From positions 166,262 to 230,261 of the forward strand of contig JBFMDH010000001.1 in assembly GCA_040754075.1 (NCBI GenBank): a stretch of 64,000 nt of DNA, given 5' to 3'. Below, piece by piece: positions 27,367-28,328 of the stretch. The notes below the pieces were generated by a model. The model was not told the origin of the DNA, did not search any database, and was given only the letters and a program-made list of their open reading frames with translations. The position numbers and the translations under genes were made by a program. This DNA is from Acidobacteriota bacterium (GTDB taxonomy: Bacteria > Acidobacteriota > Blastocatellia > UBA7656). How positions within the stretch are numbered: position 1 is the stretch's first letter; every line of letters begins with the position of its first letter.

Positions 27367-27387
27367 GCGGATTGCGGATTGCGGATT
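27367..27387. repeat. (GCGGATT)x3 heptamer array, left boundary of AT-rich cassette
   Basis: gcggattgcggattgcggatt read directly. Confidence 0.8.
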
Positions 27388-27492
27388 GCCGCTGCCAACT
27401 CATTCACCTTCACTTAAATATTTAACCCCGACAACCAAACATAGACTTGCCATCGCTAACGCTAAATTTAGTGACTAAAGGTGCAAGATATT

Positions 27493-28116
27493 CTACGCTT
27501 CAAAAAGTTCAGGTAACCCATATAAAAGAACTGTAGAGGTACTATTAACTAAAAACGGTTTCTCTTCGATCCAACGAGGAGCAAGAGCCATACCTTTATC
27601 TGGAATGGTACTAATAGGTTCTTCTGCTGAATAAAGTAAATTCATAATGGCTGCTTCTATTCTTGCAAGACTTCTACGTTCAGTGTTCAAAGGAGCAAGA
27701 AATATCCGAAAAGCAGAAAGCAAAGATTCTATTGGAAGTTCCAGTTCTTGATAACGAGAGTGAAACAATTGCTTCATTTCAGGAGTATTCGTAGACTTGC
27801 CCATCCACATACCATGCCAAAGTTCAACCCTCTTACCATTTTGCAAACTCTCAGGATCAAAAATTGTATAGGTTCCTTTTCTATAAGTGGCTATGTGTTC
27901 TTTAAGTCGCTTTTTAAAGGGTCTTGTAGTCCAGCCAGCCATATAGATTAAATACCCATTATTGTGTTCAACAGTAAAAAGATAAATTCCTGATTGCTCA
28001 ACTACTGGAGATTTTAAAAACAACTCTCCTTCACAACCTTGTAAAACTAGCGGACCTTTCCATGAAAGTAAGTAACTATCATGATCAGTATCATTGAGCA
28101 TAATTTTATTTGCCAC
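27493..28116 (-). CDS. Hypothetical protein in AT-rich island, possible GIY-YIG nuclease domain
   Basis: About 38% GC vs about 53% flanks; SGIYLFTVEHNNGYLIYMAGWTTRPFKKRLKEH fits GIY-x11-12-Y[IVM]G-x-T...R..H spacing of GIY-YIG. Confidence 0.4.
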   Translation of the reverse strand: MANKIMLNDTDHDSYLLSWKGPLVLQGCEGELFLKSPVVEQSGIYLFTVEHNNGYLIYMAGWTTRPFKKRLKEHIATYRKGTYTIFDPESLQNGKRVELWHGMWMGKSTNTPEMKQLFHSRYQELELPIESLLSAFRIFLAPLNTERRSLARIEAAIMNLLYSAEEPISTIPDKGMALAPRWIEEKPFLVNSTSTVLLYGLPELFEA

Positions 28117-28279
28117 CTATCGACACAAAGCCGCCGAACTTCTATTTGAGAGCGGCTTACAAAATAATTCGCTGAGGTTGAGCAAGCGGTCTTTGACTAC
28201 GTCGTTATGACTTACTTGGTTGAGCAATCGGTCTTTGACCGCGTAAGGAATCGCAATCAAAGACCACTTGTGCGGCGCT

Positions 28280-28328
28280 CAATCCGCAATCCGCATTTCG
28301 CAATCCGCAATTGGAAAATCCGCAATTA
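28280..28328. repeat. (AATCCGC)n heptamer array, right boundary of AT-rich cassette (inverted relative to 27367..27387)
   Basis: caatccgcaatccgcatttcgcaatccgcaattggaaaatccgcaatt. Confidence 0.8.

Follow-up and report, generated by a model that had tools for sequence, protein, structure and literature searches.

A gene for a putative GIY-YIG-like nuclease within a cassette bounded by inverted heptamer arrays after serS in an Acidobacteriota genome

Free-standing homing endonuclease genes of the GIY-YIG type are known, for example, as the seg genes of the T-even phages, and the catalytic domain of I-TevI belongs to the same type. Small selfish DNA of another kind is represented by the intervening sequences (IVS) of 23S rRNA genes. 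The Coxiella IVS is a low-GC selfish element of 428-444 nt which carries one S23p open reading frame (ORF) and ends in a 28-bp terminal stem that is cut by RNase III; on the origin and mobility of IVS there are hypotheses only (PMC4990558). Tandem heptamer repeats have also been described. The TAACTGA repeats of Beggiatoaceae, cyanobacteria and Bacteroidetes have a cross-phylum distribution that suggests horizontal spread, with no mechanism given (PMC4679880), and the GGACCGG and MTYCTGA families are found in Geobacter metallireducens (PMC2700814). Here we analyse a stretch of 64,000 nt (the window) from the metagenome-assembled genome (MAG) of an Acidobacteriota bacterium, in which a gene for a GIY-YIG-like protein lies in an AT-rich cassette between inverted arrays of the heptamer GCGGATT. 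The explanation that we favour, at about an even chance of being correct, is that a selfish element of 966 bp, acquired horizontally, has inserted directly behind the serS stop codon, and that it is made up of a homing-type GIY-YIG nuclease gene inside an IVS-like heptamer cassette. By analogy with the systems above, the locus may combine an IVS-like selfish cassette bounded by inverted repeats with a free-standing GIY-YIG gene. The wider finding, and the one most worth following up, concerns cassettes carrying PF05635 genes: in several bacterial lineages, at least four, these end in inverted (GCGGATT)n arrays.

The cassette extends from array to array (27363-28328) just past serS, as defined by the sequence and by comparison with relatives. 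Its flanking genes are an M20 peptidase gene and serS. The left, M20-proximal array is AATT(GCGGATT)x3 at 27363-27387, with the heptamers themselves at 27367-27387. The right, serS-proximal array (28281-28326) is inverted and imperfect and consists of the units AATCCGC, AATCCGC, ATTTCGC, AATCCGC, AATTGGA and AATCCGC, the last of which overlaps the serS stop codon (28326-28328). On the transcribed minus strand this array reads TAA-TTGCGGATT... The two arms are 92% complementary over 25 nt, or 84% over 38 nt. With up to two mismatches allowed, the double unit (GCGGATT)2 has 12 matches in the window against 1.45 expected, a number reached by none of 100 shuffles. The GC content is 0.392 between the arrays and 0.369 in the nuclease-like gene, while the window median is 0.50, and the inter-array DNA is the lowest-GC stretch of 900 bp in the whole window. 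At third codon positions the GC content of the gene is 0.25, as compared with 0.53 for serS and 0.54 for the M20 gene. An earlier note on this DNA had described an AT-rich stretch bounded by inverted (GCGGATT)n arrays between the M20 peptidase gene and serS, and in boundaries, composition and location this description is confirmed.

The element can be compared with the IVS of Coxiella burnetii and Leptospira that carry an S23p/PF05635 ORF. Both are small low-GC selfish inserts, presumably acquired horizontally in the present case, with a single ORF. Both have terminal inverted repeats that can pair in the transcript, as a stem of about 28 bp in the IVS, and heptamer cassettes with four units per arm reach the same length (4 x 7 = 28 bp). 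Both are found inside a host transcription unit and have no evident promoter of their own; in the cassette, a promoter scan found no sigma-70-like promoter between the right array and the gene. However, the window element is located after the serS stop codon, between serS and M20, and not in helix 25, 45 or 9 of 23S rRNA. It has tandem heptamers as inverted repeats and about twice the length of an IVS, and its cargo is a GIY-YIG-like protein of 202 residues instead of a four-helix bundle protein of about 118 residues. Both the minimum free energy fold and the centroid fold predicted for the 981-nt sense RNA of the cassette close with the array-array stem, so that the long terminal stem typical of IVS elements is present in the predicted structure.

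Several smaller features lie between the arrays, all given here for the minus strand. A direct-repeat block (28176-28270) separates the right array from the conserved core of the gene cassette. It contains two GTCAAAGACCG-type repeats of 27 nt with 89% identity (28176-28202 and 28218-28244), the pair that had been noticed before, together with a third copy, partial and inverted, at 28252-28270. The core of this motif is the 13-bp palindrome CGGTC-TTT-GACCG. The motif was not seen upstream of the homologues of the nuclease gene. Further copies are found in the window at 61083-61104 and 61109-61119, and the repeat is therefore dispersed in the genome. The region around these copies (61075-61130), between convergent genes for a HIT-family protein and an M28 peptidase, holds two tandem copies of the motif GTCAAAGACCGCTTTCTCAA, the same as the repeats upstream of the nuclease gene; this could be a second dispersed repeat family or the operator of a regulator. 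The 5' leader of the nuclease gene (28102-28158) contains a conserved box, GTTCGGCGGCTT, at 28128-28139, paired with 28151-28158 in a local hairpin, and a Shine-Dalgarno-like site, AGGTGG, at 28113-28118, 11 nt ahead of the ATG. The 3' trailer (27388-27492) extends from the stop codon of the gene to the left array. It holds TAGTCACTAAA, a decayed copy of a downstream inverted-repeat arm found in two homologous loci discussed below. No credible match to Rfam was obtained for 26000-30000 or 27050-27420.

Comparison with close relatives shows that the cassette is an insertion and that the arrays are part of the inserted DNA. In three close relatives with an orthologue of the M20 gene, a short spacer free of genes leads from serS to M20. 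The serS-M20 spacer measures 1375 bp in the window, but 532 bp in L129 (M20 identity 87%; loci from other genomes are given by our numbers), 547 bp in L130/L131 (85%) and 472 bp in L132 (76%). The homology of the relatives resumes at 27362 (minus strand, GAGAAAGCGGCGCCATCATGCG...), flush outside the left array (alignment A3). Between the serS stop codon and this point, the 966 bp of the window correspond in the relatives to unconserved spacer of about 125 nt. Where the window has (AATCCGC)3, one degenerate unit is found in each of L129 and L130, AATCCGTAAT and AATCTGTAAG, respectively. The gene is thus polymorphic for presence and absence at a conserved junction among close relatives, as homing genes are. 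The proposal in the earlier note that this is a mobile or selfish element, which was to be checked at the M20-serS junction, was largely right; at this junction the closest relatives lack the cassette.

A separate, highly conserved noncoding element of about 200-230 nt (27130-27362, minus strand) stretches from the cassette towards the start of M20 and is present in all the relatives (L129:1277-1512, L130:4583-4822 and L132:2268-2497). Its consensus fold is rod-like, with a closing stem of 16 bp and 14 pairs showing compensatory changes. It has no match in Rfam even at E<=10. It is a candidate for a new structured RNA, either a leader of M20 or a small RNA.

The nuclease-like gene is the sole ORF between the arrays. 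It is located on the minus strand at 27493-28101 and codes for 202 amino acid residues from an ATG at 28101. The 207 residues given for it in the earlier note correspond to the ORF from a GTG at 28116 (27493-28116); the single ORF stands, and the alignment of homologues moves the start to the ATG. The ratio dN/dS is 0.24 in three comparisons, which include the homologues of L170 (82% identity) and L006 (76%), so that this is a constrained coding gene under purifying selection. A word-indexed search gave 17 relatives, each named "hypothetical". In an exhaustive HMMER search the family comprised 649 clusters at 50% identity (E<=1e-3), nearly all of 190-205 residues. One member comes from a Cytobacillus isolate, and the family therefore crosses phyla.

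The protein contains the motif GIY-x12-YMAG...RPFKKRLKEH at residues 38-69. The GIY-YIG pattern was recognised in the earlier note, although it was written with x11-YMG and placed in the centre of the protein, while the motif actually lies in the N-terminal third. The key residues are G38-I-Y40, Y53/G56, R65, E68-H69 and E149. In an alignment of 60 family members Y40, G56, R65 and G76 are invariant, and G38, T58, H69, Y78, R143, R147, E149, R176 and E180 are conserved in at least 90%. The GIY element (G38-I39-Y40) is located in a predicted strand, 38-46. At the YxG position G56 corresponds to the last residue of the family consensus Y-Y-V-G, which reads Y53-M-A-G in the window subfamily. The arginine and histidine expected in the first helix are R65 and H69, both in helix 62-74. 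E149 is found in the sequence R-I-E-A-A-I in helix 142-158, directly after strand 132-137, where the metal-binding Glu of GIY-YIG enzymes would be expected, in a region spanned by no significant alignment to a solved enzyme. The Pfam model of the GIY-YIG domain (PF01541) matches 11 of the 60 members at E<=0.1, the best at 5.3e-5, and one of them, P0136, reaches 22.3 bits against a gathering cut-off of 22.6. When the family profile was aligned by hhalign to residues 1-109 of Escherichia coli UvrC (E 7e-4) and residues 1-97 of I-TevI (E 2e-3), the GIY, YxG, Arg and His positions fell in register.

The AlphaFold model of the protein has a predicted local distance difference test (pLDDT) score of 95 and a predicted template-modelling (pTM) score of 0.91. 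Its elements follow each other as strand 38-46 (GIY), strand 49-58 (YxG), helix 62-74, an insertion, strand 132-137 and helix 142-158, which is the order of the GIY-YIG fold. The insertion has 55 residues with a long helix before strand 132-137, and there are an extra N-terminal hairpin and extra C-terminal strands. The best Foldseek match in the PDB is the GIY-YIG domain of UvrC (E 0.3), and in the viral library BFVD most of the best matches are named GIY-YIG or intron-associated endonucleases (E 0.045-1). The conserved catalytic-type residues, the sub-threshold Pfam matches and the nature of the best structural matches agree with the GIY-YIG-like assignment of the earlier note. That note had named two findings that would speak against it, the lack of the catalytic Glu/Asn on alignment and conservation of the cassette in all relatives. 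Neither was obtained, because the residues are conserved in the family and the insertion is absent from the relatives; of the Glu/Asn pair, the Glu has a conserved candidate counterpart in E149, and none was identified for the Asn. From the residue pattern and the model, the protein is probably a divergent member of the GIY-YIG superfamily, whose predicted active site is plausibly intact.

Scans of the protein against NCBIfam and PHROGs returned nothing real, and tblastn found no match to it in phage and plasmid collections. Like the free-standing GIY-YIG homing genes in general, it has the expected order of motifs, it is a single gene between conserved genes, it is present or absent among close relatives, and its composition is unlike that of the host. 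The differences from these genes are that the host is a bacterial chromosome and not a phage, that no NUMOD or helix-turn-helix module is recognisable, that the protein has the 55-residue insertion between helix 1 and strand 3 and additional N- and C-terminal beta elements, and that its similarity is under the family thresholds.

Close homologues of the gene are located in varied contexts. That of L006 has gatC and a hydrolase-like gene as neighbours, that of L003 follows rpoD and precedes a PIG-L gene and nuoA, and those of L001 and L002 lie between ftsH and nanE and between genes for a VWA protein and a hydrolase, respectively. Their GC content is 0.37-0.45 in loci of 0.59-0.61. The DNA homology between the window, L170 and L006 is short; it begins about 80 nt ahead of the ATG, at the box GTTCGGCGGCTT, and ends about 30 nt past the stop codon, although that between L170 and L006 reaches about 100 nt past it. 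In L170 and L006 the upstream box pairs over 10-13 bp with a partner 17-30 nt after the stop codon. A compensatory change distinguishes the two pairs, TTCGGCGGCT/AGCCGCCGAA and TTGTTCGGCGACT/AGTCGCCGAACAA, from each other (p <= 0.008 against shuffles). A third pair, ATTAGGCGGATTT/AAATCCGCCGAAT, is found in L138 at the same upstream distance, where the gene has one GCGGATT unit to either side of it (p about 0.02). None of 45 homologue loci contains heptamer arrays. Because of the varied contexts, the low GC content, the short DNA homology and the lack of arrays, the family resembles a free-standing selfish gene whose own inverted repeats, if any, are short and apparently of the GCGG(A/C)TT type. 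A 100-residue ORF 6 nt upstream of a 74% homologue (L171:92-394) was considered as a further GIY-YIG protein and rejected, since it has no Pfam match and no profile similarity by hhalign.

The arrays, unlike the gene, occur more than once in the window. An element of about 165 bp between nuoA and nuoB (11381-11550) starts 6 nt after the nuoA stop codon and has the same two termini as the cassette, ATTGCGGATTGCGGATTGCC on the left and CAATCCGCATTTCGCAATCCGCAATTG on the right, around some 120 nt of unrelated interior. The right terminus CAATCCGCATTTCGCAATCCGCAATTG is identical over 27 nt in the two elements, with the variant unit ATTTCGC in both. In L003 no more than 67 nt separate nuoA from nuoB. 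In the predicted RNA fold of the element the arms close a stem of about 24 bp (z = -4.2). A check for nested insertion found that the similarity of its interior to the inner flanks of the cassette is not above that of shuffles. A degenerate inverted repeat with GCGGAT-type units at 34856-34975 (CCCAGCGGATGCGGCGGATTGCGCGGATG ... CATCCGCTCAATCCGCTGGGG) looks, by its units, like a diverged relative of these heptamer hairpins.

Across genomes, a 20-nt repeat pattern of the array was found in at least 120 stretches of one-genome-per-species contigs, and the matches listed are all in metagenome-derived assemblies. The lineages among these listed matches include Acidobacteriota (many Pyrinomonadaceae and Blastocatellia), Verrucomicrobiota, Planctomycetota, Chloroflexota, Nitrospirota, Gemmatimonadota, Bacteroidota, Binatia, Methylomirabilota, Latescibacterota and Deltaproteobacteria. 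The pattern is also present in 24 IMG/VR contigs. Neighbouring arrays not more than 150 nt apart are arranged as (+,-) in 30 cases, (-,+) in none, (+,+) in 12 and (-,-) in 7, so that close inverted pairs always have the polarity GCGGATT...AATCCGC. At their outer ends the pairs read AATTGCGG...CCGCAATT, and from one genome to another their interiors are unrelated. An array has from 2 to 11 or more units and, where the flanking gene is clear, begins 0-10 nt past its stop codon. The ORF calling in these loci was crude, and only intergenic cases were used, qualitatively; 60 array clusters which it placed inside ORFs were set aside as unreliable, since the heptamer is stop-free in six frames and the genomes are GC-rich. 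The known tandem heptamers (PMC4679880, PMC2700814) are similar in their 7-nt unit, in copy numbers of 2-6 or more, in their many intergenic sites and, for TAACTGA, in the distribution across phyla. However, those repeats are overwhelmingly direct, immediately precede start codons and enclose no genes, while the GCGGATT arrays form inverted pairs of fixed polarity that begin at stop codons and enclose inserts, whole genes among them.

Some individual loci deserve description. In L010 (an Opitutaceae MAG) one array-bounded element of 157 bp is present twice in opposite orientations (352-508 and 1468-1624), about 1 kb apart; its interior contains a second heptamer-like run, TCCGGAA/TTCCGGA, and its behaviour is MITE-like (miniature inverted-repeat transposable element). 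In a Mu-like viral contig both the large terminase gene and the gene after it have arrays on either side. Two IMG/VR loci (L175:11561-13711 and L194:8926-10450) have arrays within 3 nt of both ends of the terminase gene and around the adjacent gene of 177 residues. Viral contigs with arrays could be a vehicle for spread between phyla. The inner flanks of many arrays (L009-L198) are purine-rich in their first bases (GAAGA, GAAAGACC, GGAAG); this soft motif is possibly the ribosome-binding site of the cargo or a part of the element end.

The cargo most regularly found between the arrays is a gene of family PF05635, the four-helix bundle "23S rRNA intervening-sequence protein". All seven PF05635 genes for which flanking DNA was read are enclosed by (GCGGATT)n...(AATCCGC)n at a distance of 5-50 nt, four of them from loci selected for arrays and three chosen without regard to arrays, for their long contigs. 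The four array-selected cassettes (L093:119-520, L102:3181-3693, L120:1636-2061 and L121:2814-3237) are array pairs spanning 400-510 bp with one gene each. The two ORFs tested against Pfam, from L102 and L120, match PF05635 with E-values of 1e-13 and 1e-16, and those of L093 and L121 were assigned by tblastn. The assemblies of L093, L102, L120 and L121 are from an unclassified bacterium, a delta proteobacterium, Blastocatellia and Verrucomicrobiae. In the other three (L196-L198, ~1440-1910) the array (GCGGATT)4 lies 7-30 nt before the ATG and (AATCCGC)4 lies 5-10 nt after the stop codon, and the cassettes are wedged into operons, for example as zwf-[cassette]-opcA and gnd-[cassette]-zwf. Of 120 PF05635 homologues, a further 17 have array-encoded peptides (RIADCGL, SAIRNPQ) in over-extended ORF calls. 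These cassettes reproduce the architecture of the Coxiella IVS, but within mRNA operons and with arms of tandem heptamers. The search for other array-bounded cassettes proposed in the earlier note has thus been productive, with the nuoA-nuoB element and the PF05635 cassettes, and has also shown that the arrays are not private ends of the window element. The window cargo itself has no match to PF05635. A decayed PF05635 gene was sought in the cassette and the window by tblastn and hmmsearch; the candidates were rejected, as only array-encoded peptides were matched.

These observations allow us to propose how the cassette may have arisen. The cargo would be a nuclease gene behaving as a free-standing homing endonuclease gene, and the shell would be the inverted arrays that are the usual termini of cassettes which normally enclose a PF05635 gene, right after stop codons in operons. 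The nuclease would cut both DNA strands at a cognate site, and the gene would be copied in by repair. This site may be a unit of the GCGGNTT type or a hairpin; the GCGGNTT-type target is proposed because single such units flank three other copies of the gene. The likeness of the gene's own repeat unit, GCGG(C/A)TT, to the heptamer hints at the nuclease target, with thin statistics. The nuclease gene may either have landed in a heptamer cassette shell or have travelled with it. In a read-through transcript from serS the arrays would pair as a stem of 25-38 bp closing off the cassette, and RNase III might cleave this stem as it does the 28-bp one of the IVS, parting the cassette RNA from the host mRNA. 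Both the mobility of the cassette and the processing of its RNA we infer. A broader proposal, possible but on the doubtful side, is that the arrays mark a class of undescribed, promoter-less, IVS-like single-gene cassettes distributed across phyla, which insert after stop codons in operons and phage gene clusters and usually carry PF05635; the window variant would carry instead a GIY-YIG nuclease recognising GCGGNTT-type units or hairpins, and because it would recognise the array units, this nuclease could be the first candidate for a mobility enzyme of the class. The full-text literature, in which coverage is incomplete, yielded no prior description of GCGGATT arrays or of a link between PF05635 and heptamers, which is weak evidence of novelty.

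Several results weigh against the favoured explanation. As regards the protein, the second Tyr of the window subfamily is displaced by one position relative to the family, and in the 60-member alignment no Asn that follows the Glu helix is invariant or close to it. For PF01541 the window protein reaches 14.8 bits (E 0.035), under the gathering cut-off, every Foldseek E-value is above 0.04 and none is significant, and when PDB sequences were searched with a profile, the sole match was a spurious one to an apolipoprotein. No NUMOD, helix-turn-helix or separate DNA-binding domain was recognised in the protein, and a single copy of the gene is known from the source MAG. As regards the association of gene and arrays, most of 22-30 homologues have no flanking inverted repeat, with L170, L006 and L138 as the exceptions, and the tie between the two may therefore be accidental. 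No common target sequence of the gene copies was established. The array stem of the cassette is imperfect, and its mismatches show no compensation. Finally, arrays are also found singly, in tandem and flanking ordinary phage genes, and might therefore be general intergenic signals instead of cassette ends.

The alternative that survives best, although we regard it as rather unlikely, is that the arrays are the terminal inverted repeats of a MITE-like family moved in trans by a transposase, the GIY-YIG-like gene being a passenger or itself the mobiliser, as with RAYT genes between inverted repetitive extragenic palindromic (REP) sequences. The same two termini do stand around two unrelated inserts in the window, the arrays belong to DNA inserted relative to the relatives, the close inverted pairs have strict polarity (30 to 0), and viral contigs as well as MAGs from many phyla contain the heptamer. 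The elements share with MITEs and small insertion sequences the inverted ends, the multiple copies, the unrelated or conserved interiors, the occurrence in either orientation (the two copies in L010) and the insertion polymorphism. However, no consistent target-site duplication was evident at the junctions read, which were those of the window elements and of array pairs in other loci; no transposase gene was seen adjoining the elements, the number of units is variable, and the elements prefer the first bases past a stop codon. Moreover, homologues of the gene occur without arrays and arrays occur in lineages where the gene was not seen, and the gene is therefore not the general mobilising enzyme of the arrays. 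REP sequences (PMC3733652), with the REPtrons and bacterial interspersed mosaic elements that they form, resemble the arrays in being dispersed short intergenic hairpin repeats at the 3' ends of genes and in operons, and a REPtron gene can be flanked by two inverted repeats. REPs, in contrast, are imperfect palindromes of 20-40 bp with GTAG or CGTC heads and not tandem heptamers, the GCGGATT heptamer is found in many phyla, and the enclosed protein of the window is not an HUH Y1 transposase, no domain of the IS200/IS605-like type being detected in it by Pfam, NCBIfam or PHROGs. The MITE-like alternative does not exclude an insertion of a homing-type gene in an IVS-like cassette; the two are compatible.

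Less probable still is that the arrays are ordinary 3'-end, terminator or mRNA-stability hairpins, REP-like or like the short tandemly repeated repetitive (STRR) sequences, which stand beside the gene by coincidence, the gene having come by unspecific horizontal transfer and serving the host, for example in DNA repair. This would accord with arrays abutting the stop codons of many unrelated genes, in operons and in phage gene clusters, with the array-less homologues, and with the heptamer families known in Geobacter, Beggiatoaceae and cyanobacteria (PMC2700814; PMC4679880). It does not accord with the junction in the relatives, which lack both arrays and gene and where the insertion boundary is the array edge, or with the tight enclosure (5-50 nt) of seven out of seven PF05635 genes, though four of the seven were array-selected. 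The patchy distribution of the family and its AT-rich composition also speak against a housekeeping role. A one-gene anti-phage defence islet with a stand-alone, restriction-like GIY-YIG nuclease, which had been suggested as an alternative when the sequence was first read, is quite improbable: a weak Foldseek match to PD-T4-3, a GIY-YIG restriction enzyme specific for 5-hydroxymethylcytosine (E about 0.8-1.2), and the toxin-antitoxin genes near some homologues (PIN/VapC in L002, XisH/XisI in L003) are set against zero PADLOC families at E<=1, no adjoining defence genes in the window, mostly housekeeping neighbourhoods of the homologues and no homologues found in phages or plasmids.

Another region of low GC content (0.40-0.44) is located on the minus strand at 30634-31077, just after a Cu-oxidase_4 gene. 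It contains three short overlapping ORFs (ACQGCNGYK..., ...TATGRATINELRLN...) that by eye resemble a frameshifted HNH-type endonuclease, with no Pfam match at E<=0.01.

The results bear on the gene family and on the arrays. An unannotated family of proteins of about 195 residues would join the GIY-YIG superfamily. If the link of nuclease and arrays is accidental, the locus still presents a clean free-standing selfish nuclease gene in the genome of an uncultured Acidobacteriota bacterium. More generally, PF05635 is tied to a defined DNA signature outside rRNA, namely inverted tandem heptamers of about 28 bp per arm that begin at stop codons. The origin and movement of intervening sequences with an S23p ORF is a question dating from about 1990. 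In the window the array signature surrounds a nuclease gene, and the array hairpins and the empty serS-M20 site as substrates, together with a candidate enzyme, are thereby at hand. If the proposed relation is true, it would provide a lead on how the intervening sequences of 23S rRNA move.

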